From assembly GCF_003044035.1 (NCBI RefSeq), contig NZ_NVQC01000013.1, positions 30,001 through 62,000 on the forward strand: a DNA stretch of 32,000 bases, in the 5' to 3' direction. The stretch is from Candidatus Methylomirabilis limnetica (GTDB lineage Bacteria; Methylomirabilota; Methylomirabilia; Methylomirabilales; Methylomirabilaceae). Under the pieces are notes generated by a model. It worked only from the letters and a program-made list of their open reading frames with translations. It had not been told where the DNA came from and ran no database searches. Within the stretch, counting starts at the first letter, position 1, and every line of letters starts with the position of its first letter. The position numbers were made by a program, and so were the translations under genes. Of the stretch, positions 2,969-26,937 are shown piece after piece.

Positions 2969-3153
2969 CATAATAAGGGGAGGAGTCTGTCTCAGAGCAT
3001 GGCATGCTGACTCCAGGAGGCTGCGTGGCAGGTGACCCCCTGCCAAGTGCCTCGCATATGGCGAGTCATGCCGGTCACCTGGTCGTAAAACGGCGGTGAT
3101 TGGCGTGCAGCGGTATTTCAGCAATGGCGATCTCTAGTTTTTGGGAACTCACG

Positions 3154-3845
3154 TGAACTTGCCTGCTGCCAATGAATGTGGTACGGTTATTGCCGTTGTG
3201 GGCGGTTATACGCTGCTGCTACCACGAATCAAATGGGCAGCGCTAGGGTAGCCTATGCGGCGTTACTCGATTTTTAGCTGAGACGGGTTGTAGTGGTCCT
3301 GTTCAGCTTTGAAGGAGTCCGGCGGATCAAGATGAAGGACGGTGGCGAGCATGACCCTCAAAGCGAGCCGGGGGTGCAGTGAACATGTCCGTAACAGAGT
3401 CATTGAAAGAGATCAGCGCCCGCTACAACCTTGGGGCGGTGTATGCCTTCGGTAGCCGAGCGACTGAAGTCGCCAGCCGGGTGTGCGGTGAAGCGACATC
3501 GCCGCAGTTGCCTGAGTCGGATGTAGACATCGGGGTGCAGCCTCTCCCTGGCCCCCGCCTGACGGCACAGGAGCGGGTCCGGCTCTCTATCGAGTTGGAG
3601 GATCTGCTGGGGGCGACCCGCGTGGATCTGGTGGTGCTGTCGGAAGCCGATCCGTTTCTCGCGTTAGAGGTCATTCGGGGGGAGCTCCTGTGCTGCACCG
3701 ACGCCGACGCCCAGGCAGAGGATGAGCTCTACGTCTTGCGGCGTGCTGGGGACCTGGCGCCATACGCCCGTGAGCGTTGGCAGTTGATCCTCTCGGGTGA
3801 GACAAGATGACTCCTGGGCAGTTGCACGCCAAGATCGTGGCGGAG
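3154..3845. repeat. segmental duplication, copy 1 (partner 13575-14268)
   Basis: Collinear by eye with 13575-14268 (offset 10421-10423). The copy contains a junction motif, a degenerate NTase 5' fragment, the MNT gene and the first 13 codons of a DUF86 gene. Confidence 0.9.
3379..3810 (+). CDS. minimal nucleotidyltransferase (MNT), now without a functional HEPN partner
   Basis: VYAFGSRATEV...PESDVDIGVQ signature. GTG 3379 or ATG 3385 start. 12 differences in 143 aa versus the ORF at 13802-14233. Confidence 0.85.
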   Translation: MNMSVTESLKEISARYNLGAVYAFGSRATEVASRVCGEATSPQLPESDVDIGVQPLPGPRLTAQERVRLSIELEDLLGATRVDLVVLSEADPFLALEVIRGELLCCTDADAQAEDELYVLRRAGDLAPYARERWQLILSGETR

Positions 3846-5055: not shown

Positions 5056-5097
5056 GTGTGGTACGGTTTTTGGCGTAGCATAGAGGGAAGTACACTT

Positions 5098-5397
5098 ATG
5101 GACCGAAGACAGAGCTACCTTGAACGCGTTCACCAGATCGTACTGCAGCACCTGAAAGGTCAGCCGGTGCGGGTGTATCTTTTTGGGTCCTGGGTTCGAG
5201 GTGACGCTCAGCGCACTTCGGACATCGACATCGCCATCCTACCATTCGGACCGCTCCCGCCCGGGCTTTTAAGTCACCTACAGGAGGCGTTAGAGGAAAG
5301 TTATGTCCCATATCCGATCGAGATGGTGGACCTCTCCCAGACCGATGTAGCCTTTCGCCGGCGAGTCATCGAGGAAGGAATTCTGTGGAGCGATTAA
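5098..5397 (+). CDS. minimal nucleotidyltransferase (MNT)
   Basis: VRVYLFGSWVRGDAQRTSDIDIAILP signature. ATG 5098 preceded by GAGGGAAG. The track start at 5056 lies inside the junction motif. Confidence 0.85.
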   Translation: MDRRQSYLERVHQIVLQHLKGQPVRVYLFGSWVRGDAQRTSDIDIAILPFGPLPPGLLSHLQEALEESYVPYPIEMVDLSQTDVAFRRRVIEEGILWSD

Positions 5398-5780
5398 AGG
5401 AACGAATTGAGGTAGCGTTCAGAGCCCTGATCACACTGGAGCAAGTTCTGCAAGAAAGCGCTCCCAGAAAGGTTGTACGCGATGCGGCCATCCAACGCTT
5501 TGAATACACCGTGGAAGCAGCATGGAAGGCAGCTCAGCGTTACTTACAGGAGGTGGAGGGTTTGAGATCGGGGTCTCCCAAGGGTGTTGTTCGGGCCTGT
5601 TTTCAGGTAGGGCTTCTAAGCGAAGAAGAGAGTGAACTGGCCCTCCAGATCATGGATGATCGTAATTTGACAGTGCATACCTACAATGAGCCTTTAGCTG
5701 AGGCCCTGTTTGCCCGTTTGCCAGAGCATGCCCGTCTGATCCGGCAGTGGCTGGAACGGCTCGCAGCGCGTGTGCAATAG
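5385..5780 (+). CDS. HI0074-family nucleotidyltransferase substrate-binding (HEPN-fold) protein
   Basis: RDAAIQRFEYTVEAAWKAAQRYL...MDDRNLTVHTYNE (R-N-x3-H-x-Y). GTG start overlapping the MNT stop by 13 nt. Confidence 0.85.
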   Translation: MERLKERIEVAFRALITLEQVLQESAPRKVVRDAAIQRFEYTVEAAWKAAQRYLQEVEGLRSGSPKGVVRACFQVGLLSEEESELALQIMDDRNLTVHTYNEPLAEALFARLPEHARLIRQWLERLAARVQ

Positions 5781-5910
5781 ACTGCCGGGACATCACCATG
5801 CATCTGCTGATCGTCGCTGCCAAGGCCGCTATACGAGCGAGCCATGAGGAAGATCACGCCGCTGCAAGGCTTTCGTATCATCCCGTTAGGCGATTACCTG
5901 CCGAGGCTTA

Positions 5911-6043
5911 GGAGGCGTCAACAATTAACATTTACATCTACCAAAGCAACAAACCCCCTTCATCCCCCTTTCGAAAGGGGGAAAGAGGGGGTTTGTACAT
6001 TTTTCGGATCATGAATATGTATATGTTATTCTTTGACGATGCC
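5911..6043 (-). mobile_element. 133-bp MITE-like element, copy A, flanked by TTA direct repeats
   Basis: Its reverse complement matches 25915-26047 with about 6-7 mismatches by eye. Imperfect 21-bp terminal inverted repeat (16/21). Long internal GC hairpin. TTA at 5908-5910 and 6044-6046. Confidence 0.7.
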
Positions 6044-6074
6044 TTACTCGCACATTTGAGCGTATCCCGAGATC

Positions 6075-6332
6075 GTGGCGGTCTATCTCTCTGTGGAGGT
6101 GTTCCAGATTCTGTGGGAGGCCGGGATTCTACCGGAGGAGTGTGTCCTGGTCCTTACCGGTGTGGGCCGTTTTCGAAATATCTTAGCCCATGTGTATATC
6201 ACTATCGAACTGGATAAGGTGTATGAGAACCTCCAGAAAGCCCAGAACAGATCAGTGAATTTATGCGGCTCGTTCAGCACTTTGTTGAAGAACAGGGGTC
6301 GCAGCAAGATCTCGCGTAAACGACGCGCTTAA
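6075..6332 (+). pseudogene. DUF86/HepT-type HEPN gene, 3' fragment with frameshift
   Basis: WEAGILPEECVLVLTGVGRFRNILAHVYITIELDKVYENLQKA carries R-x4-H-x-Y. In-frame TGA at 6057-6059 removes the N-terminus. After about 6240 a +1 frame reads better (SPEQISEFMRLVQHFVEEQG). No NTase partner is adjacent. Confidence 0.65.
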
Positions 6333-6600
6333 AATGTTCGTCTCATGGCGATCCCCTGTGGGCATCCCTTCCGGATATGATCAGGGCCAAAGGGCAGAAG
6401 ACCAATGATAAAGTCAACGTAACTGCTCAGGTAGATAGACTGTAGTCTTTTAGACTGTAGGAACGAGCTAGGCGTTTGCCGAATGTGACGCGAATCAATG
6501 ATGGAGACCGAAAAGGTTCTGGGCGCCTTGATTCGGTCCATGCGCAACGACTAACAGCCTTCAGTCTACAGCCTAAACACCTGAGTAGTTACAAGTCAAA

Positions 6601-6945
6601 ATGACAACGATCATTGAGCAGAGACGGACGCAACTAAAAGAAGCTCTTGAAAAAGCGATCCAAGTCCTGAGGGAGGAATATCATCCCCTCCGGATTATTG
6701 TTTTTGGATCGCTGGCGACGGACAAGGTCGGTGAGACCAGCGATTTAGATCTTCTGATCGTGAAGGAAACCTCCTTGCCTTTTTACGAGCGACTTCGTGA
6801 GGTGGCTCTGCTCTGTCCCTTGAAGGTTGGAGCGGACATTTTGGTTTACACCCCTGCCGAAGTTGAGCAGGCATCCCGGGATAGCCAGTTTTTTAGAGAA
6901 GAAGTCTTGGGAAAGGGTCGGGAGGTTTATCGTGCGCCCGTATGA
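6601..6945 (+). CDS. minimal nucleotidyltransferase (MNT)
   Basis: LRIIVFGSLATDKVGETSDLDLLIVKE ... ADILVYTPAEVE. Confidence 0.85.
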   Translation: MTTIIEQRRTQLKEALEKAIQVLREEYHPLRIIVFGSLATDKVGETSDLDLLIVKETSLPFYERLREVALLCPLKVGADILVYTPAEVEQASRDSQFFREEVLGKGREVYRAPV

Positions 6946-7081
6946 GCGGTGGCTGAACCAGGCATGGGATGATCTTCAATTTGCTCGCCTTGGTCTGGAA
7001 CAGGGGTTTCATGCACAGGCATGTTTTCTTTCCCAGCAGGTCATCGAAAAATGTCTGAAAGGGTGCCTGAGGTCAACCTGA
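6932..7081 (+). pseudogene. classical HEPN-domain gene truncated after about 49 codons
   Basis: GTG 6932 (overlaps the MNT stop) gives VRPYERWLNQAWDDLQFARLGLEQGFHAQACFLSQQVIEKCLKGCLRST*. This is the first helix pair of a PF05168-type HEPN protein; the remainder is missing. Confidence 0.6.
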
Positions 7082-7086
7082 GTCAA

Positions 7087-7575
7087 ATGGATACCGCTGT
7101 TAAAGAATTAGAGAAGAGGCTTCTAGCCGAAATTAAAGCCCTGTACGGCAAGAGGCTTGTGTCAGTGGTTGTGTTCGGCTCGGCTGGACAGGGAACACAA
7201 AGGTGTGACTCAGACCTGGACGTGTTGGTTGGTGCCGATCGACTCCCAAGGGGAAGAATGAAGCGTGTCGAAGAGTTTTCAATCGTGGAGAACCGGATTG
7301 AGCCTTTCTTGAAATCTCTTCAACAAGCGGGAATTGCCACCGATCTCTCTCCCGTGATCAAAAGCCCTGAGGAGGCGGAGAAAGGGAGTCCGCTGTTCCT
7401 CGACATGGTGGAGGATGCCCGCATTCTTGTGGATCGAAACGGGTTTTTCAAGGCGGTTCTGAAACGTCTTCGATGCCGGTTGGAGAAACTGGGCGCGAGG
7501 AGAATCTGGATGGGAAACGCATGGTACTGGGACCTCAAGCCGGACTATAAGCCCGGAGAATGCTTCGAGTTATGA
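7087..7575 (+). CDS. nucleotidyltransferase-domain protein with C-terminal extension
   Basis: LVSVVVFGSAGQGTQRCDSDLDVLVGAD signature. ATG 7087 preferred (alternatives 7051 and 7021 lie inside the truncated HEPN ORF). Confidence 0.8.
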   Translation: MDTAVKELEKRLLAEIKALYGKRLVSVVVFGSAGQGTQRCDSDLDVLVGADRLPRGRMKRVEEFSIVENRIEPFLKSLQQAGIATDLSPVIKSPEEAEKGSPLFLDMVEDARILVDRNGFFKAVLKRLRCRLEKLGARRIWMGNAWYWDLKPDYKPGECFEL

Positions 7576-7922
7576 CGAACGAAGACCTGGCCCAAAGTTA
7601 TCTTCGAAAGTCCATGGTTCGGCTTGATGTCCTCGATCTGTTTTTCAAAAAGCAGGATTACTCCGATGTGATCCGAGAGGCGCAGAAGATTGTAGAATTG
7701 TGTCTTAAAGGGGTGCTCCGTTATGTTGGTATTGAACTGCCGAAATTTCATGACGTCGGATTCCTTCTGCTTGAACATCACTGGCGGTGTAAGGGAATCG
7801 CCCTCAGAGATATTAAAAAGATGGCCGATATTTCCAAGCGGTTGAGGAAAGAGAGGGAGCTGGTTTTCTACGGGGATATTGATTTCATCCCAACCGATCA
7901 ATCAGAGGTAAAGGCGAGGTGA
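7572..7922 (+). CDS. classical HEPN-domain protein
   Basis: ATGA overlap with the upstream stop. YSDVIREAQKIVELCLKGVLRYVGIELPKFHDVG ... RKERELVFYGD. Confidence 0.8.
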   Translation: MTNEDLAQSYLRKSMVRLDVLDLFFKKQDYSDVIREAQKIVELCLKGVLRYVGIELPKFHDVGFLLLEHHWRCKGIALRDIKKMADISKRLRKERELVFYGDIDFIPTDQSEVKAR

Positions 7923-8341
7923 GCTTGAGCACAATCTACACGCTCGATCACGACGAACGGTCACGCATCATGGATCAGTTCGTGTCCGAACTGGCATCAG
8001 AACCGGGGATGGCCTTTGCGTACCTCTATGGGTCGTTTGTGGATTCCGAGGCGTTCCGGGATGTGGATGTTGGGGTGTATATGCGTTCCATGGCGCCGGG
8101 CGAGATGACCACGCGCGCTATGGCGCTCGCCCAGTGCCTCAGTACGAAGGTGCGGCTTCCCGTGGATGTCCGCGTGCTGAACGCCGCCCCTATTCCATTC
8201 CTCTACCACGTTCTACGGGGACACCTTCTCTTGAGTCACGATGACGATCTCCTCACCGAGGTGATTGAGCGGACCGCTTGCCGCTATCTTGACATCGCCT
8301 CGCTATTGCGCTCGAGTGCGCGGGAGGCGTTTGCGGCATGA
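7919..8341 (+). CDS. mntA: MntA-type nucleotidyltransferase antitoxin
   Basis: GTGA overlap with the upstream stop. FAYLYGSFVDSEAFRDVDVGVYM ... VDVRVLNAAP. Followed by an ATGA-coupled DUF86 gene. Confidence 0.85.
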   Translation: MSLSTIYTLDHDERSRIMDQFVSELASEPGMAFAYLYGSFVDSEAFRDVDVGVYMRSMAPGEMTTRAMALAQCLSTKVRLPVDVRVLNAAPIPFLYHVLRGHLLLSHDDDLLTEVIERTACRYLDIASLLRSSAREAFAA

Positions 8342-8754
8342 CGCTGAACGCTGATCTCGTCCGGGCCCGCTGTGCCGAGATCGAGGAATCGGTGAGCCGT
8401 TTGGAGCGGTTCAAGACCCTCCCTCGTGACGCATTTCTGGGAGATCAGGACACCCTTGATCTGGCGTGCTACCGGCTCTTGGTGGCGATGGAGGCGGCAT
8501 TGGCCCTCTGCTACCACGTCTCGGCCAAACGCCTCCGAAAGGTCCCAGAGGACTATGCCCAATGTTTCGGGATACTGCAGGAGGCGGCTATCATTCCCTC
8601 AGAACTTGCCGCTCGCCTTCAGTGGATGGCAAGGTTTCGGAATCTGCTCGTGCACATGTACTGGAAGGTCGACTATGGGGTGGTCTACGACGTGATCCGG
8701 GATAATCTGGAGGATTTGCGCGCCCTTAGCGCGGCGGTTGCTCGTCTCATCTGA
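8338..8754 (+). CDS. hepT: HepT-type (DUF86) HEPN toxin; the only full-length DUF86 gene in the window
   Basis: MARFRNLLVHMYWKVDYGVVYDVI (R-x4-H-x-Y). 138 aa. ATGA overlap with mntA. Confidence 0.9.
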   Translation: MTLNADLVRARCAEIEESVSRLERFKTLPRDAFLGDQDTLDLACYRLLVAMEAALALCYHVSAKRLRKVPEDYAQCFGILQEAAIIPSELAARLQWMARFRNLLVHMYWKVDYGVVYDVIRDNLEDLRALSAAVARLI

Positions 8755-10161: not shown

Positions 10162-10583
10162 ATGATTCATAAGACTTCGCTCCCCAAAGATAGTGAGGAG
10201 CGGCTACGCTCCCTTGGCCCAGCGTTACAACAATGCTCTGGTGTCCTCTTCGCCTACCTGTTTGGCGGGGCGACGGTTTCACCCCTCAAGCCCCTGAGCG
10301 ATGTGGATGTGGCTGTTACCTTGATGACCCTGTCGATCTGGTCGAGGGGCGTCTGGAGGCCATCGGCGTAGTAACCACGCACCTGCATACCGACGAGGTA
10401 GACGTGGTAGTCCTCAATACGGCGCCGACGGCCTTGACGGGACGGATCCTTCAGACCCGACGGGTCATCTTCGACCGCGATCCGTTCCGCCGACACCTCT
10501 TCGAGTCACTTGCGCTCCGAGAGTTCTTCGACTTCCGCATCTTCGAACATCGCCTCCTGGCCAGGAGGCACGGCAATGGTTGA
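10162..10583 (+). pseudogene. MNT nucleotidyltransferase with a -1 frameshift
   Basis: Frame A gives VLFAYLFGGATVSPLKPLSDVDVAV. The sequence continues in frame B as YLDDPVDLVEGRLEAIGVVTTHLHTDEVDVVVLNTAP.... The junction at about 10317-10320 (GCT GT|T ACC) looks like a 1-nt loss, unless it is a sequencing error. Confidence 0.7.
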
Positions 10584-11294
10584 CAGGGACCTCCTCCTCC
10601 GGAAACTAGCGGATCTTGACCAGTATCTGGGCCAAGTATCAGAGTACCGGGACATCACCATCGACCAGTATCGAGGAGACTGGAAGACCCAGCGTATTGT
10701 CGAGCGGACTCTCCAAATGACCATCGAGCTGTGCGTGGACATTGCCAACCATATCATCGCCGACCGGGGACTCCGGGTCCCGGCAACCTATTCTGGGTTC
10801 TTCCGGCATTAGCGTGGGTACGAGGGAGCTCAATATCCCTTCTGGGGAAGAGGGTGGCTGTGTTCCTCCCCCTCGAGGGGGGAGGATGAAGGTGGGGGTG
10901 ATCGGAGGCTTTCGGAGCGTCACCCATAGCGTCTCTTGGGCTGTGTGGGCGTGTGCGTGTCACCCGCTGACATCGTGCATGGCATGCGCCCTCCCACCCG
11001 CGCCCTCCCCCCGGATCGAGTCCGGGGCAGGCTCTCGGTGGGGGGAGGGGATGCTGGAAGGCCCGGGTACCCACGGAACACCCGGAAGAACCCTATTCCG
11101 AGGCGTTTGACGTCCTGGGCGAGGCCGGACTCCTGGACGCAGCTCGGCGAGATGCCATGATCCGCATGAGCAAGTTCCGTAATGTGATCGTCCACGACTA
11201 TGTGCGGGTAGACCCCACGATTGTCGTGCAGATCCTGCGTGAGCATCTCGAAGACTTGACCCGGTTCAAGGTGGCCGCGCTGAAGTGGATATAG
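10576..11294 (+). pseudogene. DUF86/HepT-type HEPN gene split by a ~300-bp MITE
   Basis: The 5' part is MVDRDLLLRKLADLDQYLG...IADRGLRVPATYS. The 3' part (11094-11294) is YSEAFDVLGEAGLLDAARRDAMIRMSKFRNVIVHDYVRVD...KWI*. Removing 10794-11098 restores one 137-codon frame. Confidence 0.8.
10794..11093. mobile_element. MITE-like insertion with perfect 12-bp TIRs and a TATTC target duplication
   Basis: GGGTTCTTCCGG (10795-10806) and CCGGAAGAACCC (11082-11093) are exact reverse complements. TATTC occurs at 10789-10793 and 11094-11098. No credible ORF inside. Contains a CCTCCCCCTCGAGGGGGGAGG hairpin. Confidence 0.75.
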
Positions 11295-11440
11295 CGTGCG
11301 TACGACTACTCTGCCAGGAGGCATGGTAAGAGATGGAGATGAGCGTAGCGTCCCGACGTCGGTTGTTATTGGACATGGCCCGCAGGCGGGCGCAACCGGG
11401 AACCGGCAGCTCCAGACTCTTCCTGGAAGCTCGAACGGCT

Positions 11441-11953
11441 ATGACGTACTGGCCTGATCTTACGCCGACGCTCACCGGCATCCCATGGGCCGTGGTGGGG
11501 GCCGTTGCTACCCGAGCCTACATGCCTGAGCGCACCACTCAGGACCTGGACATCCTGGTGAATGTGTCGGATCAGGAAGAGGTGAGAGTACGCCTGCAAC
11601 GGGCCGGCTTTCTTCCGGTGCAAGAGCTTGCCATCGGGGGTATGACCTGGCGCTCCCCTATGGGGGCCATAGTAGATGTCATTGAGTCTCGGGCGGAGTG
11701 GGTGTCGGAAGCGCTCCAGTCGCTGAGACAGGACCGCCAGGGACTTCCCGTGCTTGACCTGCCGTATCTCGTCCTGATGAAGGTTGAGGCGGGACGCGCG
11801 CAGGATCTGGCGGATGCGGCACGCATGCTTGGGGCAGCATCGGAGGCTCGCCATCAGGAGACCTGTGAGCTCTTTCGCCGCTATCTACCCGACGCACAGG
11901 ACGACCTGGAGAGTCTTATCGCCTTGGGTCGCCTGGAGATGGGGAATGAGTAA
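11441..11953 (+). CDS. solitary nucleotidyltransferase-fold protein (DUF6036/AbiEii-like)
   Basis: WAVVGAVATRAYMPERTTQDLDILV and LPYLVLMKVEAGRAQDLADAARM resemble standalone NTase-fold proteins. ATG 11441 preferred over the Arg-rich extension from 11333. Confidence 0.5.
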   Translation: MTYWPDLTPTLTGIPWAVVGAVATRAYMPERTTQDLDILVNVSDQEEVRVRLQRAGFLPVQELAIGGMTWRSPMGAIVDVIESRAEWVSEALQSLRQDRQGLPVLDLPYLVLMKVEAGRAQDLADAARMLGAASEARHQETCELFRRYLPDAQDDLESLIALGRLEMGNE

Positions 11954-12010
11954 TGTTTTTAGAACGATCGGGTGGTATAGGAAGACTCAACCTTTGGCTG
12001 AGAGGCAATC

Positions 12011-12083
12011 TTATTACTCAGAGCATAAAATAGCTTGCCCCCCTTTAGCAAAGGGGGGTAAGGGGGGTTTTGAACGATCGGTA
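12011..12083. repeat. 73-bp dispersed repeat (second copy at 16343-16415)
   Basis: TTATTACTCAGAGCATAAAATAGCTTGCCCCCCTTTAGCAAAGGGGGGTAAGGGGGGTTTTGAACGATCGGTA is nearly identical at both sites. Confidence 0.85.
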
Positions 12084-12090
12084 CAAATCA

Positions 12091-12168
12091 CCTCTTTCCC
12101 CCTTTCGAAAGGGGGATGAAGGGGGTTTGTTGCTTTGGTAGATGTAAATGTTAATTGTTGACGCCTCC
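12091..12168 (+). mobile_element. 133-bp MITE family, partial copy B (right ~78 bp)
   Basis: Matches 25970-26047 almost exactly (CCTCTTTCCCCCTTTCGAAAGGGGGATGAAGGGGGTTTGTTGCTTTGGTAGATGTAAATGTTAATTGTTGACGCCTCC). The left third is missing. Confidence 0.75.
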
Positions 12169-12383
12169 TAAACGACGCATCACTGGCCTTTCGTTACCAC
12201 GCCATGACGGGACAACCTCCGCTTTCTTCTCTTCGCTCGCCGGTATCTCCGTGAGGTGCTGAGTGCGTGAGATCGACTTGGAGCGGCTCAGGGAACTGGC
12301 GGGGCAACTGCGAAGCGCGGTGCGGGAGCTTACGGCGACCAGTACCTGGCCGCCATCGGCCATCACGTGAAGGCTCATCTCTT

Positions 12384-12510
12384 TTGAATCCACTGGGGGT
12401 TCATTCCCCTCGGCGTGCCGCGAGTTCGTCATACCGGCGGACCCCGGATCAGAGTCCGGGGCAGGCGCCGGTATCCAGAGGGCCCGACTGGATTCCCCCG
12501 TATCAAGCGG
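12384..12510 (+). repeat. REP/MITE-like repeat family 2, copy 1
   Basis: TTGAATCCACTGGGGGTTCATTCC...GCCGCGAGTTCGTCATACCGGCGG...GGTATCCAGAGGGCCCGACTGGATTCC is shared with 16043-16228 and 26938-27095. It generates the recurrent artefactual ORF start MPRVRHTGG. Confidence 0.8.
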
Positions 12511-12583
12511 AACACCTGGGTTTTATTGATCGGGATAAATCTGGCGATACCAGAGTGCTTTCGCCGGGAGGCAGCATGTGCGC

Positions 12584-12612
12584 TTGACATTCACAGGCGT
12601 GACAGATAAAAT
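12584..12612 (+). promoter_or_regulatory. near-consensus sigma70 promoter for vapBC
   Basis: TTGACA (12584-12589), 17-nt spacer, TAAAAT (12607-12612). Lies at the edge of a conspicuously AT-rich 80-bp stretch just upstream of the ATG at 12664. Confidence 0.5.
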
Positions 12613-12663
12613 TCATTATGTATGTCAAATAGATAAAGTATCGACGAATAGGTAAATAATCTG

Positions 12664-12915
12664 ATGCTTATCATTAAAGTAGGACGTCGAGGACAGATTA
12701 CAGTCCCTAAAGCGATCCGCCGATGGCTCAACCTCCAGGAGGGCGATCGGCTGGCCTTCGTCCGTCGGGGCGACGAGGTCATTCTGCAGCCCCTCACCCG
12801 CACGTTGTTGGACCTGCGGGGAAGTGTCCCTGTATCAGGACCTCAGGATTTCGCCGCCATTCGCCAGCAGGTGATCGATCGCCACGCTCGCCAGGTCATC
12901 GAGAATGACGCCTGA
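12664..12915 (+). CDS. vapB: AbrB/MazE/SpoVT-family antitoxin
   Basis: MLIIKVGRRGQITVPKAIRRWLNLQEGDRLAFVRRGDEVILQP is a looped-hinge-helix (AbrB-type) motif. Overlaps the PIN gene by 11 nt. Confidence 0.85.
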   Translation: MLIIKVGRRGQITVPKAIRRWLNLQEGDRLAFVRRGDEVILQPLTRTLLDLRGSVPVSGPQDFAAIRQQVIDRHARQVIENDA

Positions 12916-13339
12916 GCGCCTCTTCGCCGACACCAATCTTTTTTTGCGCTACCTGACCAACGATGTGCCGGAACAGGCAGAGGCCGTCGAGCAGGTGCTC
13001 CGTCGTGCAGCGGCTGGAGAGCTGGTCCTCGTGACGAACACACTGGTCATGGCGGAGATTGTGTGGACACTGGAAACCTTCTACCAACTCCCGAGAAGTG
13101 ACATCAAAGACAAGGTATTGGCCATCCTGAACACCCCTGGGCTCGAGGTGGCGGATGGCGACCTGATGCTGCAAGCCATGACCTGGTATACGGAGAAGAA
13201 TGTGGGCTTCATCGATGCCTACAATGCGGCCTGGATGCGAGGCGTGGGGTTGATGATTGCCTGCACATTTGACCGAAAACACTTTTCCCGCCTCGAAGGG
13301 GTGACCGTGATGGTTCCGGGAGCCGATCCTCCCGGCTAA
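12905..13339 (+). CDS. vapC: PIN-domain ribonuclease toxin
   Basis: Acidic residues in the expected PIN positions: LFADTNLFL, VMAEIVW, GFIDAYNAAW, CTFDRKHF. Confidence 0.85.
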   Translation: MTPERLFADTNLFLRYLTNDVPEQAEAVEQVLRRAAAGELVLVTNTLVMAEIVWTLETFYQLPRSDIKDKVLAILNTPGLEVADGDLMLQAMTWYTEKNVGFIDAYNAAWMRGVGLMIACTFDRKHFSRLEGVTVMVPGADPPG

Positions 13340-13424
13340 CCTAACCTCCGCGCTCGACAGCGCGACGGATGATATTCGGGCCTCTCTTCGCCCCGAAAGT
13401 CCCCCTCGGCCGCCTGATCTGTAG

Positions 13425-13445
13425 GGGCGGGGTTTATCCCCGCCC
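13425..13445 (+). terminator. GC hairpin downstream of vapC (REP-like or terminator)
   Basis: GGGCGGGG-TTTAT-CCCCGCCC, an 8-bp perfect stem. No clear U-tract. Confidence 0.3.
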
Positions 13446-13508
13446 GGTAAGCAGGAGGGCGCACGAGGTATTGGTTGTATGAAGCTGACCGCAATGAGCG
13501 ACGTGTGA

Positions 13509-13552
13509 GACGACCTGGAGAGCCTCACCACCCTGGGCCGGTTAGAAATGGA
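13509..13552 (+). pseudogene. ghost copy of the 3' end of the 11441-11953 gene
   Basis: DDLESLTTLGRLEMD versus DDLESLIALGRLEMG. DNA similarity runs from GACGACCTGGAGAG onward. Confidence 0.5.
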
Positions 13553-13574
13553 CCGACCGCTGCTAACACGCAAA

Positions 13575-14268
13575 TGAACTTGCCTGCTGCCAATGAATGT
13601 GGTACGGTTCTTGCCATTGTATGAAGTTATACTCTGCTGCTCACATGGACTTAATAGGCAGCGCCAAGGCCGCCTACGCGGCGTTGCTGGAGTCCTTGAT
13701 GAAGTGGGTCGTAGTGGTCCTGTCTGGCCTTAAGGGGGTCAGGCTGATCAAGATGGAGTAACGGTGGCGACCATGACCATCAAGGCGAAACCTAGGGTGT
13801 AGTGAACATGTCCGTAACAGAGCCGTTAAAAGAGATCAGCGCGCGCTACAACCTTGGGGCGGTGTATGCCTTCGGCAGCCGAGCGACCGAAGTCGTCAGC
13901 CAGGTGTACGGTGAAGCGACATCACCGCAGTTTCCTGAGTCGGATGTAGACATCGGGGTACAGCCTCTCCCAGGTCACCGCCTGACGGCACAGGAGCGGG
14001 TCCGGTTCTCTATCGAGCTGGAGGACCTGCTCGGCGTCGGCCGTGTGGATCTCGTAGTGCTACCGGAGGCCGATCCGTTTCTTGCACTGGATGTCATTCG
14101 GGGGGAGCTCCTGTGTTGCGCCGACGCCGACGCCCAGGCGGAGGATGAACTCTACGTCTTGCGGCGAGCTGGGGACCTGGCGCCATACGCCCGTGAGCGT
14201 TGGCAGTTGATCCTCTCGGGTGAGACAAGATGACTCCTGGGCAGTTGCGCGCCAAGATCGTGGCGGAG
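13575..14268. repeat. segmental duplication, copy 2 (partner 3154-3845)
   Basis: See copy 1. The same order of junction motif, NTase 5' fragment, MNT gene and DUF86 start. Confidence 0.9.
13802..14233 (+). CDS. minimal nucleotidyltransferase (MNT)
   Basis: VYAFGSRATEV...PESDVDIGVQ. Paralog of the gene at 3379-3810. Confidence 0.85.
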   Translation: MNMSVTEPLKEISARYNLGAVYAFGSRATEVVSQVYGEATSPQFPESDVDIGVQPLPGHRLTAQERVRFSIELEDLLGVGRVDLVVLPEADPFLALDVIRGELLCCADADAQAEDELYVLRRAGDLAPYARERWQLILSGETR

Positions 14269-14475
14269 CGAGCGGCGTGGATCCGGCGGATGGTGGCCTC
14301 CCTCCGGGCTTTGCCTGGGGAGAGTTTCGAGACCTTTCAATCAGATTCCCGCAACATCGCTGCAGCCGAATCGTATCTGCGCCGGGCATTGGAGGCGCTT
14401 CACCTTCCCGATTCCAAAAGTGAGAGTGGTAGAATTCTAGTGGAGGAGGGATGTTATACTTGCCGAGTATATTGA
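14230..14475 (+). pseudogene. DUF86/HepT-type HEPN gene truncated before the catalytic motif
   Basis: ATGA-coupled MTPGQLRAKIVAERAAWIRRMVASLRALPGESFETFQSDSRNIAAAESYLRRALEAL is DUF86-like. From about 14400 the sequence is unrelated and there is no R-x4-H. Confidence 0.65.
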
Positions 14476-14482
14476 CAAGGCT

Positions 14483-14725
14483 ATGGAACAAGCCGTTTAT
14501 GAGATTATTGAGGACGAACGAACGTACTGGGGAGAGATTCCTGGTCTTCAAGGTGTGTGGGCGCGTCATGCTACGTTAGAGGGTTGCCGACGTGAACTCC
14601 GTGAGGCGCTGAGTGACTGGATGGCGTTGCGTTTGCGACTGGGCCTAGCGATTCCCGTTGTAGCAGGTATTGATCTGAATCAAATTACACAGCACTCGAT
14701 GTGCCGTGCGAGCCGTCAGGTCTGA
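14483..14725 (+). CDS. hicB: HicB-like (UPF0150) antitoxin domain protein, no intact HicA nearby
   Basis: YEIIEDERTYWGEIPGLQGVWARHATLEGCRRELREALSDWMALRLRLGLAIP matches the HicB N-terminal domain pattern. Confidence 0.65.
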   Translation: MEQAVYEIIEDERTYWGEIPGLQGVWARHATLEGCRRELREALSDWMALRLRLGLAIPVVAGIDLNQITQHSMCRASRQV

Positions 14726-14758
14726 GGTCGCGGAATCGAGTTCCCAGAAGAGCATCCG

Positions 14759-15118
14759 ATGGAGACAACGGACCGAATATACAGCGCCAGGGCTGCCTAC
14801 GCGGCGCTGCTAGAGTCCTCGCTGAAGCGGGTTGTAACGGTCCTGTCCGGCCTTGAAGGGATCAAGCGGATCAGCCTCGTGGGGTCCTATGCCCGGGGCC
14901 GGGCCGATCTGTTCACCGATCTCGACATCCTGGTGGTGATGGACACGGATCTCAGCTTTATCGACCGCCTTCGCATGTTGTACCCGCTCCTGGCCCTGCC
15001 CGTGGACCTGGACCTGCTGTGCTATACCCCTGGGGAGTTAGAGCGGATGCAGGACCGACCGTTCATAAAGCATTTGCGTCGAGAGGAGGTAGTCCTCTAT
15101 GAGACGAGCACCTCGTGA
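14759..15118 (+). CDS. nucleotidyltransferase-domain protein
   Basis: [25 protein letters not shown] ... [13 protein letters not shown]. Confidence 0.85.
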
Positions 15119-15530
15119 AGAGGGCGCCAGATGGCTGCAACAGGCCGTCGAGGATCTGCGGTGGGCCGAAGATCTGGCAGAGCGCGGCGGGTATCACATT
15201 GCCTGCTTCCTGGCCCAGCAGATCGGCGAAAAGGCCCTCAAGGGGTTCCTCTATGCGCAGGGCGAGGAGATAGTGATAGGTCATTCAGTCGAGCGGTTGT
15301 GCCGAGCGGCTGCCCGCTATGACCCAGCATTCGACCAACTGGTCGCGCGGTGGTCGATCTTGGATGGCTATTACATCCCGACTCGATATCCAAACAGCGT
15401 ACCCGACAGCATTCCGGCCCATATCTTCACTCGAGATGCCGCGGGGGAGGCGGTGCGCTTGGCGAGAGAGATCGTGACCTACGTCACCGATCGACTCGGT
15501 CGGATGGAGGGTGAAGGTGGTGGAGGATGA
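15099..15530 (+). CDS. classical HEPN-domain protein
   Basis: [41 protein letters not shown]...YYIPTRYPN. 20-nt overlap with the NTase gene. Confidence 0.85.
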
Positions 15531-15895: not shown

Positions 15896-16042
15896 ATGCG
15901 CATCGGCGTAAACACCCTCCCGCTCTTCCCCGGCCAGATCGGCGGGATGGAGACATACACGACTAATCTCTTGACGCACCTCACTGCAATCGACTGCCAA
16001 CATACCTACCACCTCTTTGTGGCCCACCATAACCGTGGTCTC
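15896..16042 (+). pseudogene. GT4-family glycosyltransferase, 49-codon 5' stub
   Basis: MRIGVNTLPLFPGQIGGMETYTTNLLTHLTAIDCQHTYHLFVAHHNRG is a typical GT4 N-terminus. The reading frame runs straight into repeat family 2 at 16043. Confidence 0.6.
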
Positions 16043-16228
16043 TTGAATCCACTGGGGGTTCATTCCCAGCGGCTTGCCGCGAGTTCGTCATACCGGCGGA
16101 GGCCGGTATCCAACAGGGCCCGACTGGATTCCCCCCCCGTATCAAGTACGGGGCAGGCGTGTCAAGCACGGAATGACGGGCCAGAACGGAAGACGATACC
16201 CTGCAGCTTGCTGCGGGGTCCTTCATTG
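16043..16228 (+). repeat. REP/MITE-like repeat family 2, copy 2
   Basis: Same modules as 12384-12510, plus GTCAAGCACGGAATGACGGGCCAGAAC ... CTGCAGCTTGCTGCGGGGTCCTTCAT, which is shared with 27028-27095. Confidence 0.8.
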
Positions 16229-16342: not shown

Positions 16343-16450
16343 TTATTACTCAGAGCATAAAATAGCTTACCCCCCTTTAGCAAAGGGGGGTAAGGGGGGT
16401 TTTGAACGGTCGGTAAAACCCCCTCAATCCCCCTTTCGTAAAGGGGGAAG
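16343..16450. repeat. 73-bp dispersed repeat copy 2 plus a degenerate GC-hairpin unit
   Basis: 16343-16415 matches 12011-12083. 16416-16450 (AAACCCCCTCAATCCCCCTTTCGTAAAGGGGGAAGTTGCTGG) resembles the hairpin core and right arm of the 133-bp MITE family. Confidence 0.8.
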
Positions 16451-17962: not shown

Positions 17963-20098
17963 ATGAGACCGGCGGCCCTACTCCTGTATCTCCTCGCGCT
18001 GGTGTCCTGTTCCACCGGCTCGTATGTCCAGCGCCGGCAGATCGACCTCGACGCATCGATCGTACAACTCGCGATACCGTCTGTCATGTTTACCGGAGAA
18101 GGCGGTCCTGCAACGGTTCGCGTTCGCAATACCGGATCGGCCTCCTGGACGGCTGCTGCCAATATCAATCTCAATCTCAGCTACCAGACATCCGGCGGCC
18201 GACCAATGACGGTCGGACCAGGCCGCGTGTTACTGTTTCCCGACGAGGTAGTCGAGCCCGGCAGCGAGAAGTCCTTCGCTTTTGACCTTCGAGCGCCGGA
18301 GATTCAGGAACAGATCACCATCAGCCCGCAGATGGTGCTCGAATCTTCCAGGTATTTTGGTCGGCGAGTCCCCGTGATCACCACTATCCTGTTTCCGCCC
18401 CCGGCGCTCGTCGAGCCGGCGGAGGGCGCCACACTCGATGATGGATCGCCGCCGACTCTTCGCTGGGCTGCCATCGATGGCGCAGCCGGCTACACTCTTA
18501 TCCTCCTGGCCCCCCTTCTTGACCGGTCCCTCACGTTCTCTCAGATTGCCTACCCTCATTTCCAAATCCCACCAGAAACATGGGCTGCGACTTCAAGCGG
18601 CCGCTATTTCTGGGGAGTGGCAGCCGTTGATGCTCAAGGCATGGCGGGGGCTTTCACAATGCATAGCTTCAATAAGACTCGACCCTACCCGGAGCCGGCT
18701 CCGCTCTCCGGAGTACCTTTTCCGATCCCCCTTGGTCCGGGAGATGCGACGACGCACGCCGATCCGGTGACTGTTCGCTGGACTCCGCTCGCTGATGCGA
18801 CCTCATATCATGTAGAGTTCACCCTTCCAGACGGACGAGTTGTTCTCGTGGATATCACGACGCCGGAGTTTACCTTCTCACCTGAACAGTGGTTCTCCCT
18901 CCCAGCCGGTCATTATGTCTGGCGGGTTACCGCCAATGGCCCAATGGGACCAGGACCTGTCGGCCCGCCGCTTCGCTTTACAAAGATCACAACCGACCGG
19001 CCCGGTTCCCCTGACACATTCGGTCTCGATGAGCACATCTTTCCGATCGACCCAAGCAAGTGGCCGGAGGCGGCTGTTGAGCAGGGAATGACCATGCTCC
19101 AGCAGGCTGGAGTCAAGTGGGTGAAGGTCGCTATCCAATGGGCCTTTATGCAATCAGCAGACGGAACGTTCGACTGGACGGTCCCCGATCGTTTCGTCGC
19201 CAAGGCCAGAGATCACCGGCTTCACCTCGTATGGATGCTCTCGACACCGCCTGCATCCCTCCTTGATCCCTCCGCCAGGCAAGTTGCCCCATATTACCAA
19301 CTCATCCCGGACATTCCGGCTGACTGGAATGATCCGGCGGGTTACTCGCCGACATTCTTCACCTTCATGAAGCAGCTTATCGCCCGATATAAACCATACA
19401 GCCACGTTGTTGGGTCCCCCACGTACGGCCAATTGTACGGGGTGCAGCACTGGGCGATGGGGGTCGAGGCGAACAATACCATCTTCGGAAAGATCGGCCC
19501 GGAGCAGTACTTGAAAGGATGGTTGAAACCTGCCTTCCTGGCCAAGCAGGAGGTCGATCCTGAAGCGAAAATCCTGGCTATGTTGGCCTACATCCCTGAT
19601 CCCCTGGGGACGATACTGGGCCTTCCTGATCCCGCGTTGCAGAATAACGTGATCGACTATGTGAACCGGCTCCGAGATCTGGGCGCGCCTGATTTCTTCG
19701 ATATCGCCGGTGTATCGATATATACCGATGCGAAGCGCGGCCCTGAGAGTCTCGAGAAGGCTAACTCGCTCGATCAAACCGCTGTTCGCCGCGGCGTTCG
19801 CCTGATGAGGACTGCGTTCCCTGGGAAACCGGTCTGGGTCACAGAGGCGGGCTGGGGCGCCGACCTGCGTGAGAAAGGCGACGGACAATGCGTCTCACTT
19901 CAAGAGCAGGCGGTCTACGTTCCTATCCTCTACGATACCGCGATGGCCGAAGGCGCAGAGAAGGTCTTTTGGTTTGGGTTCCGAGACTCACTTCAGGAGG
20001 GGGAATTCCCGTGCGGCCCCTGGCTGGGGTTGGTCGATCTGCACTTTACGCCCAAACCATCATGGGAAGCCTATAGGCGAAAGATTGGTGGGCGGTAG
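17963..20098 (+). CDS. lipoprotein with tandem Ig-like repeats and a C-terminal clan GH-A-like glycoside hydrolase domain
   Basis: Lipobox LALVSC at residues 12-17. Two related segments with W-x-x-(I/L)-x-G/D-A-x-x-Y (TLRWAAIDGAAGYTL; TVRWTPLADATSYHV). TIM-barrel-like C-terminal part with candidate acid/base (WAMGVEANN) and nucleophile (VWVTEAGW) glutamates. Confidence 0.7.
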   Translation: MRPAALLLYLLALVSCSTGSYVQRRQIDLDASIVQLAIPSVMFTGEGGPATVRVRNTGSASWTAAANINLNLSYQTSGGRPMTVGPGRVLLFPDEVVEPGSEKSFAFDLRAPEIQEQITISPQMVLESSRYFGRRVPVITTILFPPPALVEPAEGATLDDGSPPTLRWAAIDGAAGYTLILLAPLLDRSLTFSQIAYPHFQIPPETWAATSSGRYFWGVAAVDAQGMAGAFTMHSFNKTRPYPEPAPLSGVPFPIPLGPGDATTHADPVTVRWTPLADATSYHVEFTLPDGRVVLVDITTPEFTFSPEQWFSLPAGHYVWRVTANGPMGPGPVGPPLRFTKITTDRPGSPDTFGLDEHIFPIDPSKWPEAAVEQGMTMLQQAGVKWVKVAIQWAFMQSADGTFDWTVPDRFVAKARDHRLHLVWMLSTPPASLLDPSARQVAPYYQLIPDIPADWNDPAGYSPTFFTFMKQLIARYKPYSHVVGSPTYGQLYGVQHWAMGVEANNTIFGKIGPEQYLKGWLKPAFLAKQEVDPEAKILAMLAYIPDPLGTILGLPDPALQNNVIDYVNRLRDLGAPDFFDIAGVSIYTDAKRGPESLEKANSLDQTAVRRGVRLMRTAFPGKPVWVTEAGWGADLREKGDGQCVSLQEQAVYVPILYDTAMAEGAEKVFWFGFRDSLQEGEFPCGPWLGLVDLHFTPKPSWEAYRRKIGGR

Positions 20099-20153
20099 CC
20101 TGAATGGAAAACGATAACAGATCCGGTCATCTCTGCTGTCGGGGAAGGACACC

Positions 20154-22766
20154 ATGCTGAGCGCTGCAGTCATAGGATGCGGGCCCCGCGGCATTGAGCA
20201 CGCGTGTGCTCTGAAGAGCGTTATCGGACTTGAACTTGTGGCTGTTGTCGATCAGTCGGCGCCGGCTTTACGTACGGCAATCGACTCCCTGGGCGTTCCA
20301 GGGTATCTGGATGTGAAGGAGCTTGTGGAACGCCATCGACCTGACATCGTGATCTGTGCGACGCCGGCACGCGGGCGAGCAGACTTGGTGATGCAGCTTG
20401 CCCCATTTCCAGGCATCCGCGCGATTGTTGTCGAGAAGCCGATGGCGGTGACCTTGGCCGAAGCCGAGTTGATGCTCGGAGCCTGCACGGCGCGAGGCAT
20501 ACTGTTGACGGTCTGTCATCAACTTCGGTTTTGCGATGAGTTTATTGCTATGAAGGCTGCGATCGACGCAGGAGAACTTGGCCGGATTGAGTTCCTTCGT
20601 GGAAGCTGCTACGGCAATCTCCTCAACCAAGGGCCACATCTGCTGGATGCCATTCGCTGGTTCGCCGGTACGCGGGAGATTTTGTGGATCATGTCTCAAT
20701 GGAGCGATGATCCGGATCTTCTCGCCCGGTATACACAAGGGGACCAAGGGTACCGGAATGATGACTCACACCCCGCTCCGATGTGGATGACGCATTACCT
20801 CGCCTTCGAGGGAGGATTGCGGGCCACATTGGAAACAGGACTCCTGTACCAGCGGTCCGGTACCTTTCGCGGCGACTGGCTGCAAAAGCGCGTGTCGGTG
20901 ACAGGCTCGAATGGACAGGCCGAATGTCAGGCGGCCGGTTACTTCAGGATCATCTCCAGCGAGCGCCCTGGCCCGGAGGTCCGAGATGGATCCATCGAAA
21001 GGTATCGTGCCGCCACGCGGGCATTCCACGAAGAACTACGCGACGCGCTTGAAGCCGGTATCCCCCATCGGAATGATGCAAAGGATGCCCTGAAGACGCT
21101 CGAAGCGGTAATCGGCTGCGCTCAAAGCGCGGTAGATGATGCGATGGCTGTGTTGCCTCTCGCCAGGGACCGTGATCCGGTATCAGAACTGGAGACATTT
21201 CGACAAGCCGTACGACGGGATACCCTCGCGTTCGGTTCACGCCGGACTATTCGGATCAGCGAACGAATCGACCGCGACGTGACGGAACCTGATATCTCGG
21301 TGATTGTGACGCTTCCGGATGATCGGGGGCTGGCTCAAGAGTGCGTGAAGAGCTGGGTCCATGGGCAGACCTACCCGCGGGAGCGGTTCCAATTGATAGT
21401 CGTGACCGACGGATCGGATCCGAACCGGGACGATCGCGTGAAAGCGCTGCTTGGACCGGGGGATGAGTTCATCTGTCATCATACATCCAACGAGCTGCAC
21501 TTGTACGACCTCGGTGCCCGCCGCGCCAAGGGCAAGCTGCTTTTCATCACAGAGCCGCACTGTATCGCAGAGCGCGAATGTCTGGAAGAGCTGAGCGCCT
21601 TTTTCTCCACCCATGATTACGACGGCGCATGTTGTCGGAGTATCGGAATCTGTTCGAACGTCATGGCGCGCATGGAGGAACAATTATTTGAAACGGGTTT
21701 TCGTCTCTTTTCTCAACGGGGCGACTGGCGCAAAGTGATTCTGCGCGGTTTCGCCGTTTATCGCGACACCTACCTGGAAGAGGGAGGCTTCGAATATGCC
21801 TATGGCCGCTTTGCCGAATGGGCTTTTGCGGCGAAGCTGCACAGCCGGGGTCGCCGGTTAGGATATGCGGCCGGTGCAGCCGTTCGGCATGAGTACACCA
21901 CAAGTTTTCGGGAGCTGTTTCCCTTTGTCAGGGAATTCACGCGCGGGGAGTGCGCCTATCGTCTGAGCGCGCTGCCTGCCTACTGTGAGCACTATTTCGG
22001 CTGTGCGCCGGAGTGGAGTGCGCGCGAATTGCTGCGTCCCTCGGTGGCCCGTTCCGCGTGCCGAGCGGCCTGGAGAAGCCTGTGGAGCGGGTTCCGCGAC
22101 GGCGTCGGCCGGGCGATGTTCGAGGTCCAGGCGAAGACGTTCCTGCAGACCCTGCCGATTGCCCTGTTGGGCCCACGCTGGCGAGTATTCGAAGCCGCCT
22201 GGGCACTCCAGATAGCACGGGCGAGGTCCCGGATGTGGCGCTTGAACGATCGGAGACTCTTTCGCGCCTATTCTGATGCGTATGAACGGATGGTCCGCTA
22301 CAGTCGACTCGAATATATCGCGGAGTATTTGGCCTCGTCCGGGCCGGTACTATCTGAGTCGTATGACTATAGGGTTGCTGAGGTTTCGGAAGAGCGACTT
22401 GTAGGCTTTCACGCCTTGGAGCAGTGGGAAAAGGAGTCGTTCCGCTGGTCCGGTCCGGTGTCGATGGTGCGTATAAGTCTCGCGGTGGCCTCATACGAGG
22501 TCCAAATCGATACTCGGTCTCTGCGAAGGGCCCCCGTCCCGCTCTGCCTTAGCATTTTCTTCAATCGTGTTAAACTACCCTCTTCTTCCGTCCAGTTCAA
22601 AGATGGGTTCGTATCGTTCTCGATTCAACCGTCCATGTTTGTGGACGGGCGTGAACAGCGGCTGATCTTGACCTGCAATCCCGTACGACCGTGGATGTTC
22701 GGCGTGCCCGATCGTCGCGAGCTGGGTCTGCCGATCTTCTCAATCGTCTTCCAACCGGTTGAGTAG
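20154..22766 (+). CDS. 870-aa fusion: Gfo/Idh/MocA-type oxidoreductase + GT2 glycosyltransferase + C-terminal beta-rich domain
   Basis: N-terminal part: AAVIGCGPRGIEHA...VVEKPMAVTLAEAE...TVCHQLRF (Rossmann fold of Gfo/Idh/MocA). Middle: ISVIVTLPDDRGLAQECVKSWVHGQTYPRERFQLIVVTDGSD (GT2). One uninterrupted ORF. Confidence 0.8.
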   Translation: MLSAAVIGCGPRGIEHACALKSVIGLELVAVVDQSAPALRTAIDSLGVPGYLDVKELVERHRPDIVICATPARGRADLVMQLAPFPGIRAIVVEKPMAVTLAEAELMLGACTARGILLTVCHQLRFCDEFIAMKAAIDAGELGRIEFLRGSCYGNLLNQGPHLLDAIRWFAGTREILWIMSQWSDDPDLLARYTQGDQGYRNDDSHPAPMWMTHYLAFEGGLRATLETGLLYQRSGTFRGDWLQKRVSVTGSNGQAECQAAGYFRIISSERPGPEVRDGSIERYRAATRAFHEELRDALEAGIPHRNDAKDALKTLEAVIGCAQSAVDDAMAVLPLARDRDPVSELETFRQAVRRDTLAFGSRRTIRISERIDRDVTEPDISVIVTLPDDRGLAQECVKSWVHGQTYPRERFQLIVVTDGSDPNRDDRVKALLGPGDEFICHHTSNELHLYDLGARRAKGKLLFITEPHCIAERECLEELSAFFSTHDYDGACCRSIGICSNVMARMEEQLFETGFRLFSQRGDWRKVILRGFAVYRDTYLEEGGFEYAYGRFAEWAFAAKLHSRGRRLGYAAGAAVRHEYTTSFRELFPFVREFTRGECAYRLSALPAYCEHYFGCAPEWSARELLRPSVARSACRAAWRSLWSGFRDGVGRAMFEVQAKTFLQTLPIALLGPRWRVFEAAWALQIARARSRMWRLNDRRLFRAYSDAYERMVRYSRLEYIAEYLASSGPVLSESYDYRVAEVSEERLVGFHALEQWEKESFRWSGPVSMVRISLAVASYEVQIDTRSLRRAPVPLCLSIFFNRVKLPSSSVQFKDGFVSFSIQPSMFVDGREQRLILTCNPVRPWMFGVPDRRELGLPIFSIVFQPVE

Positions 22767-26047: not shown

Positions 26048-26053
26048 TTAGAG

Positions 26054-26612: not shown

Positions 26613-26617
26613 AACGT

Positions 26618-26897: not shown

Positions 26898-26937
26898 ACT
26901 GGCAACCTTCTTACCGTTGTCCTCTGAACTCTTGCTG

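Follow-up and report, generated by a model that had tools for sequence, protein, structure and literature searches.

What kind of element is the 133-bp palindromic sequence that occurs twice at full length in a 32,000-nucleotide stretch of a Methylomirabilis genome (contig NZ_NVQC01000013.1, positions 30,001 to 62,000; the whole stretch is called the window below), and which transposase could have moved it? Here we present a comparative analysis of this sequence, of its relatives on metagenome contigs and of the insertion sequences (ISs) that carry the same ends. Its copies very probably form a family of non-autonomous MITEs (miniature inverted-repeat transposable elements), in which two ends of ISAzo13-family ISs are joined by a G5/C5 double hairpin, and which would depend on an ISAzo13 transposase acting in trans and duplicate the trinucleotide TWA (W, A or T) at the target.

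Copy A occupies positions 5911-6043 on the minus strand (nhmmer score 155.9, E 1.4e-46, profile positions 1-133) and copy B positions 25915-26047 on the plus strand; they lie 20 kb apart in opposite orientations, and in a pairwise comparison, with copy A read as its reverse complement, 128/133 positions are identical. An earlier note, prepared from the letters of the window, had located both copies correctly and counted 6-7 mismatches between them, as compared with the 5 found here. Its description of their architecture (TTA on both sides of each copy, an imperfect 21-bp terminal inverted repeat (TIR) with 16 identities, folding of the whole element as a single stem) was reproduced in each part. 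The trinucleotide TTA is located at 5908-5910 and 6044-6046 around copy A, which reads as TAA/TAA in the element's orientation, and at 25912-25914 and 26048-26050 around copy B. The terminal 21 nt of both sides, GGCAGCGTCAAAGAATAACAT and GGAGGCGTCAACAATTAACAT, are identical at 16/21 positions, and the window contains 5 matches to a degenerate 21-nt pattern that describes the two ends, versus 0.02 expected by chance. The predicted fold of the entire 133 bp is one long bulged hairpin, with an energy of -29.3 kcal/mol when folded as DNA (z -5.5) and of -57.5 and -56.2 kcal/mol when the copies are folded as RNA (z -6.3 and -7.3); this stability was matched by 0/200 shuffles. Only one open reading frame (ORF) overlaps copy B; it runs from 25912 to 26103 (63 aa) and gave no match in Pfam. 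The element has no coding capacity for a transposase.

When metagenome contigs of JGI were searched for this pattern, nine more full-length copies of 130-134 bp were obtained on eight contigs, which brings the family to 12 copies, 11 of them full-length in unrelated flanks and one truncated. Pairwise identity among the full-length copies ranges from 84 to 98% (mean 92%), with the ends conserved in 11/11. When these copies were aligned together with their surroundings, the similarity started and stopped exactly at GG...CC and the flanks were otherwise unrelated, so the element is not embedded in any longer conserved unit. Read in the element's orientation, the flanking trinucleotides are TAA/TAA in five of the 11 copies and TTA/TTA in four; the remaining two show one-base deviations (TAA/TCA, and TGA/TTA in the most degenerate copy), and the mixed combination TAA/TTA was found in 0/11. 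If TAA and TTA were drawn independently on each side, nine concordant pairs would have a probability of about 2^-9 (~0.002). The concordance is direct and not inverted, and therefore reflects a target-site duplication (TSD) rather than an extension of the stem. Scanning of GTDB representative genomes gave 16 single matches to the TIR pattern, about the chance number, with no MITE copy among them; viral contigs gave none either, and no further copies were present in the host contig within 10 kb beyond the window on each side. Its distribution seems to be limited to one sublineage of Methylomirabilis, encountered in a few metagenomes.

The site of copy B was found empty in Ca. M. oxyfera (FP565575, locus L055 in our set). 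There the DNA is contiguous, ...GCCGAA-TTA-GAGGG..., with a single TTA and without the element; in longer form it reads ...CTGGCTCGCATCGCCGAA-TTA-GAGGGTAAGGTGGTCGACC... (also ...CGCCGAA-TTA-GAGGGTAAGG...), where the window has 133 bp between two TTA. Flanks of the empty and filled sites are identical at 43/44 and 42/45 positions. On a larger scale, window positions 25809-25915 correspond to L055 12618-12724 (99.1% identity) and 26048-26138 to L055 12721-12813 (93.5%), the two blocks being contiguous in M. oxyfera and overlapping on TTA(G). The co-varying TWA flanks of the 11 full-length copies, together with the single TTA at the empty site, therefore identify the 133-bp element with high confidence as a MITE that generates a 3-bp TWA TSD, and the family proposed in the earlier note is well established in this respect. 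A second comparison provides a partial empty site only: contig L045 from JGI, which shares 88-92% identity with the DNA immediately to the left of the window, has a MITE at a TTA where the window genome has none, and the 120 nt to the right of that site have diverged.

In M. oxyfera the copy B site is the 3' end of a GSCFA-family gene. Compared with that genome (window 25809-26701 versus L055 11601-14487), separate deletions in the window genome have removed most of the GSCFA gene and, from the radical-SAM/SPASM gene downstream of it, the 5' half; the remaining SPASM part (26085-26612) is also frameshifted. Copy B lies inside the GSCFA remnant, at neither deletion junction. The GT4 glycosyltransferase gene beside copy B shares 89% protein and 91.9% DNA identity with that of Ca. 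M. oxyfera (FP565575), which makes the host another species of Methylomirabilis (NC10 phylum).

Where do such ends come from? The terminal 21-26 nt of the MITE (GGnnnCGTCAAnnAnTAACATTnACA) are equal to the ends of ISAzo13-family ISs, which are about 1.28-1.29 kb long. In copy B the left TIR (25915-25940, plus strand, GGCAGCGTCAAAGAATAACATGCACA) is of the ISAzo13 3'-end type and matches stop-proximal ends such as GGAGTCGTCAAAGAATAACATTATCA of L047 and GGCAGCGTCAAAAAATAACATTGTCA of L005, and the right TIR (26022-26047, minus strand, GGAGGCGTCAACAATTAACATTTACA) is of the 5'-end type, matching the 5' end of L038 (GGCGTCGTCAACAAATAACATTGACA) and that of L020 (GGAGTCGTCAACAAATAACATTTACA). Both MITE ends fit the IS end consensus GGnnnCGTCAAnnAnTAAC(A/G)TTnACA of about 26 nt, and seven IS types start with GGnnnCGTCAAnnAnTAAC(A/G)T, namely those of L047, L038, L020, L005 and L007 and the P0181 and P0196 types.

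On the JGI contigs L047 and L038, inverted end matches 1291 and 1294 bp apart surround a single ORF of 408 aa, which is an ISAzo13 transposase according to both PF07592 (E 2.7e-141 and 2e-137) and NF033519 (591 and 574 bits), with a weak secondary match to IS630. Three of the single GTDB matches to the pattern, L005, L007 and L020 (Solibacteraceae, Verrucomicrobiota and Acidobacteriota metagenome-assembled genomes, MAGs), proved to be real ISAzo13 ends, as tblastn located an ISAzo13 transposase gene immediately beside each. The search for transposase homologs returned >8000 relatives, through which 19 contigs with the P0181 (1291 bp) and P0196 (1279 bp) types, carrying the same motif at both ends, were found. 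The complete ISs delimited by the end pattern are thus 1291, 1294 and 1279 bp long, and a further one reaches 2716 bp because an IS256-family element is inserted in it; the only ORF of their own encodes an ISAzo13 transposase of 400-408 aa (PF07592 E between 1e-135 and 1e-141), and TAA or TTA stands beside 34/34 ends of the complete copies. The interrupted element (L020 4136-6851, Acidobacteriota MAG of GTDB) has a TAA/TAA duplication and is split near its 3' end by the nested IS256-family element, whose 429-aa Transposase_mut ORF lies at 5442-6731. A search for an IS with matching TIRs, which the earlier note had recommended, is in this way answered by ISAzo13-family elements found outside the host.

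The same note had ascribed the mobilisation to an IS5/Harbinger-type system. Harbinger and some subgroups of IS5 do typically make a 3-bp TNA/TWA duplication, and the duplication itself is confirmed here; the attribution, which was based on the TWA duplication alone, is nevertheless unsupported. Every transposase gene adjoining the same terminal sequence belongs to the ISAzo13 family (PF07592, NF033519), and not to DDE_Tnp_1 or DDE_Tnp_4, in seven independent IS types, and the match of the MITE ends to ISAzo13 extends over about 26 nt. Moreover, 3-bp TSDs are produced by ISAzo13 itself, as well as by the eukaryotic Zator transposons (PMC10045372). Judging by the genes that adjoin matching ends, and not by a library of IS5 TIRs, we consider it very improbable that an IS5-family transposase (IS1031/ISL2/IS427 group) or a PIF/Harbinger-like one mobilised the MITE.

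The way in which the two arms are paired fits an origin from ISAzo13. The stop codon of the ISAzo13 transposase is located inside the 3' TIR (...AAT GTT ATT CTT TGA CGACTCC), and the same stretch has been kept in the left arm of the MITE. A left arm of the 3'-end type combined with a right arm of the 5'-end type would be the expected appearance of an IS derivative formed by internal deletion or by fusion of ends. In the mechanism which we propose, an ISAzo13-family DDE transposase would be supplied in trans, presumably from an element in the same cell, and would recognise the TIRs of roughly 26 nt (GGnnnCGTCAAnnAnTAACATTnACA). The element would then integrate at T-W-A sites via a 3-nt staggered cut, the repair of which would leave TAA or TTA duplicated. 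Zator and TP36 cluster with IS630-Tc1-mariner (PMC7386202, PMC5718144), and by analogy with the IS630/Tc1-mariner/Zator group the chemistry of transposition may be of the cut-and-paste type.

Several observations weigh against an ISAzo13-derived MITE, or against parts of this explanation. Neither some 52 kb of host DNA (the window extended by 10 kb to the left and to the right) nor the other Methylomirabilis loci compared yielded a gene for an ISAzo13 transposase, and the ISs that carry matching ends originate from other metagenomes or phyla (MAGs of Acidobacteriota and Verrucomicrobiota; contigs from soil and sediment). Matching direct flanks were seen in only 10/17 complete IS copies. In silico excision of the 11 full-length MITE copies restored no recognised gene. 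The central hairpin, for which a terminator or insulator role is suggested by its shape alone, was not called in a simple scan for terminators. The discordant IS flanks can be traced further, as some contigs have one flank in common and the other different (L060/L061/L062, L071/L074, L072/L075), which points to chimeric short-read assembly or to recombination across a 1.3-kb repeat, a problem of which the 133-bp MITE is free. Metagenome contigs spanning the 1.3-kb ISs (L047 286-1576; L060-L078) are often mosaic, and TSD concordance of full-length ISs is unreliable on them. As regards excision, only the GSCFA-family gene remnant was rejoined when copy B was removed. Copy A abuts a DUF86 gene lacking its 5' part, as the earlier note had recognised: the truncated HepT/DUF86 ORF at 6075-6332 covers positions 61-109 of the 120 in the Pfam profile. 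Since no gene is restored by excision, this truncation does not come from simple insertion.

Two further contigs with end-like sequences were set aside. L043 has an exact 22-nt end match with neither a TWA flank nor a transposase and was treated as a chance match or a solo remnant, and L044 has a pair of TIR-like matches 2.7 kb apart with no transposase ORF between them. Transposase genes of other families are present 3-10 kb beyond the right side of the window, namely IS256-family (Transposase_mut, L048 14341-15585), IS3-family (HTH_Tnp_1 and rve, 19203-20704) and an HTH_29/HTH_32 fragment (20701-21479); none of them is ISAzo13.

The interior of the MITE raises a question of its own. The central bulged G5/C5 double hairpin (25963-26009 in copy B, 5950-5996 in copy A, by sequence and folding) has the core AAACCCCC-n5-CCCCCTTTCGAAAGGGGG-n5-GGGGGTTT, and related C5/G5 hairpins stand alone in the window at 519-552, 566-612, 1180-1213, 12026-12072, 16358-16404 and 16415-16450, as well as on related contigs. 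The MITE arms are missing from these hairpins, which match only the central positions of the profile (about 28-96; E about 3e-5 or weaker). Their build is C5-6 TTT..AAA G5-6 with one extra G- or C-run and with T/A runs, which resembles a terminator, and they are frequently paired, for example just after the tRNA-Met gene. Counting the MITE cores, there are 8 instances of the inner-stem motif in the 32 kb of the window versus 0 in 21.5 kb of orthologous M. oxyfera DNA. The hairpin at 16416-16450, which the earlier note had listed as a degenerate MITE copy, is one of this group: only the central hairpin matches (profile positions 50-93), the similarity of the flank of 16415-16450 to a MITE arm is not significant (p=0.06), and we rejected it as a MITE remnant. 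The stand-alone hairpins may be host terminators, donors of the MITE core or remnants.

The partial copy (copy C) connects the two kinds of sequence. It is real and somewhat longer than the 78 nt at 12091-12168 previously assigned to it, since it extends over 12081-12168 on the plus strand (88 nt, profile positions 46-133, E 6.4e-27) and consists of the central hairpin and the right arm, followed by TAA at 12169-12171. Over 91 nt it is 98% complementary to copy A. Its left arm has been replaced by an unrelated hairpin and a spacer, and the stretch 12011-12080 is 97% identical to 16343-16412. Copy C may thus be the product of recombination within the hairpin common to the MITE and to the stand-alone context at 16343-16412.

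These data bear directly on the possibility that the sequence is a palindromic element of the host, similar to repetitive extragenic palindromes (REP) and bacterial interspersed mosaic elements (BIME) or to a duplicated bidirectional terminator, which was spread by recombination or by a single-strand mechanism of the REP-associated tyrosine transposase (RAYT) or IS200-605 type. The central hairpin does occur alone in the window and on related contigs with T-runs like those of intrinsic terminators, it is missing from the 21.5 kb of the M. oxyfera ortholog region, and copy C looks like a recombination product within it. However, REP and IS200/605-type elements have no such TIRs and make no target duplication, whereas the MITE has both ISAzo13 TIRs and a 3-bp TSD, and the stand-alone hairpins without the arms represent a different family, at most a donor or recipient of the MITE core. 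A REP/RAYT or IS200/IS605-type palindromic element (palindrome-associated transposable element, PATE) is ruled out by the TIRs and the TSD, and there is little chance that the host-palindrome explanation in its broader form is correct.

Could the fold instead indicate a small structured RNA gene or a repeated cis-regulatory RNA? The predicted fold is very stable, and at alignment pair 51-94 a compensatory change from A-U to C-G is present in 5/11 MITE copies. In three copies the mismatched internal loop TCTTT/ATGAA has been converted into a perfect palindrome, which is TCTTT/AAAGA in two and TTCAT/ATGAA in one; such loop-to-stem conversions fit hairpin-templated correction or selection for pairing, and in a DNA palindrome compensatory changes can also arise through hairpin-templated repair. 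Against an RNA gene, the element has no Rfam family at the gathering threshold and only a tRNA was found in the window, the copies stand in both orientations in unrelated and partly decayed contexts, and the repetition is explained by the transposon hallmarks, so an RNA gene seems very unlikely. The remaining proposal, that the elements are attC sites of an integron cassette array, appeals to imperfect palindromes that are about as long as attC sites (roughly 130 bp), contain AAC...GTT in their ends and lie in a toxin-antitoxin-rich region, as is often the case for sedentary integrons, yet it is ruled out by the 3-bp duplication and clean empty site, which are not made by attC x attI/attC recombination, by the opposite orientations of copies A and B 20 kb apart with long polysaccharide genes in between rather than a co-oriented array, by the lack of an integrase domain among the window ORFs scanned and among the Pfam domains listed for the adjoining 10 kb to the left and right, and by MITE ends (GGCAGCGTCAAAG.../...GTTGACGCCTCC; GGCAGCGTC.../...GACGCCTCC) that do not fit RYYYAAC/GTTRRRY at the boundaries.

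Returning to the ISAzo13-derived MITE, the origin of its core allows a wider proposal, which we put forward tentatively and with considerable doubt. This would be the first described family of ISAzo13-derived MITEs, active after the Methylomirabilis species diverged, which captured a terminator-like double hairpin of the host and then underwent hairpin-templated conversion and recombination with the stand-alone hairpins. We found no description of ISAzo13-derived MITEs or of Methylomirabilis MITEs in the literature searched, which is absence of evidence only. By analogy with the stand-alone terminator-like hairpins, the central hairpin could act, when transcribed, as a bidirectional terminator or as an RNA stem. 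If the hairpin was indeed captured, the MITE would be a mobile bidirectional terminator or insulator seeding rearrangements in the genomes of NC10 methanotrophs.

The window as a whole is a polysaccharide-biosynthesis locus interleaved with toxin-antitoxin genes of the MntA/HepT type (nucleotidyltransferase/HEPN), several of them truncated, and with one tRNA-Met gene; it has its counterpart on a 152-kb contig from the metagenome of an enrichment (ENA ERZ4201063, coverage about 668). Pairs of this type (nucleotidyltransferase and HEPN/DUF86/NTase_sub_bind) are unusually dense at 1313-2439, 3379-3810, 5056-8754, 10233-10583 and 13802-15530, and paralogous segments of them (3147-3671 versus 13568-14094) are 77-88% identical; MazE/PIN, DUF4258 and UPF0150 (HicB-like) genes are also present within the locus. 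About 3.7 kb of the window (11294-15031) is missing between adjacent homologous blocks of M. oxyfera (L055 7794-7810). This segment contains the truncated copy C, hairpins, and MazE/PIN and nucleotidyltransferase genes, and gains and losses of DNA are concentrated in the region.

Two other kinds of repeats were noticed in the window. A second, unrelated modular family of about 150-215 nt is composed of several GC hairpins (TTGAATCCACTGGGGGTTCATTCCCCGCGGCTTGCCGCGAGTTCGTCATACCGGCGGA...GGTATCCAGAGGGCCCGACTGGATTCC...CGTGTCAAGCACGGAATGACGGGCCAGAAC...) with optional 24-nt hairpin modules. It is present at window positions 12381-12496, 16040-16218 and 26935-27086, in L029 (2672-2881) and in L042 (4035-4192 and 522-594), none was seen in the M. 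oxyfera loci and there was no Rfam match at the gathering threshold. Three MITE copies have a member of this family at a distance of 145-215 nt, but neither the spacing nor the orientation is constant. Within the GT2 gene (29735-31672), positions 29999-30345 contain tandem and near-tandem coding repeats, 117 nt at 195-nt spacing with 85% identity and a 42-nt unit present three times; similar repeats exist in the M. oxyfera ortholog (L055 18649-18872).

Through co-varying flanks and an empty site, the MITE shows cleanly, at the level of sequence, that DNA bounded by ISAzo13-type ends inserts at TWA and that 3 bp are duplicated in the process. With full-length ISs this is difficult to show, because short-read assemblies scramble their flanks. 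It is also a non-autonomous derivative of a rare, little-studied IS family that has the Zator transposons as eukaryotic relatives. For Methylomirabilis genomics it is a lineage-specific repeat, which marks recent insertions and can break assemblies, and it may affect transcription in the polysaccharide and toxin-antitoxin region. The finding is useful for annotation of NC10 genomes and reveals no new kind of mechanism.

Among known systems, the closest to the MITE are the ISAzo13 ISs (PF07592, 'Rhodopirellula transposase DDE domain'; NF033519; bacterial TP36, related to Zator), with which it has in common the terminal 21-26 nt, the TAA/TTA flanks, the 3-bp duplication and the 3'-end TIR with ...GTTATTCTTTGACG containing the transposase stop codon. 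It differs from them in having no transposase, in its length of 133 bp versus about 1.28-1.29 kb, in an interior G5/C5 double hairpin not seen in the examined ISs and in that its two TIRs are of different subtypes. Integron attC sites are similar in length and in being imperfect palindromes, and the MITE departs from them by its TSD, empty site, mixed orientations and boundary misfit. Tourist-like MITEs of the IS5/PIF-Harbinger group make the same 3-bp TWA/TNA duplication, but the terminal sequence of the present element matches ISAzo13 ends instead. Correia-type MITEs are non-coding elements of about 100-160 bp with TIRs and, in Correia itself, a TA duplication, which insert between genes and possibly affect transcripts. 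In general terms the Correia elements of Neisseria (CREE/NEMIS), RUP, ERIC/IRU, Nezha and Chunjie are like the Methylomirabilis MITE in size, TIRs, short A/T-rich duplication and hairpin; the latter is set apart from Correia by the ISAzo13 family of its proposed transposase, by a 3-bp TWA duplication instead of TA and by a host belonging to the phylum NC10.

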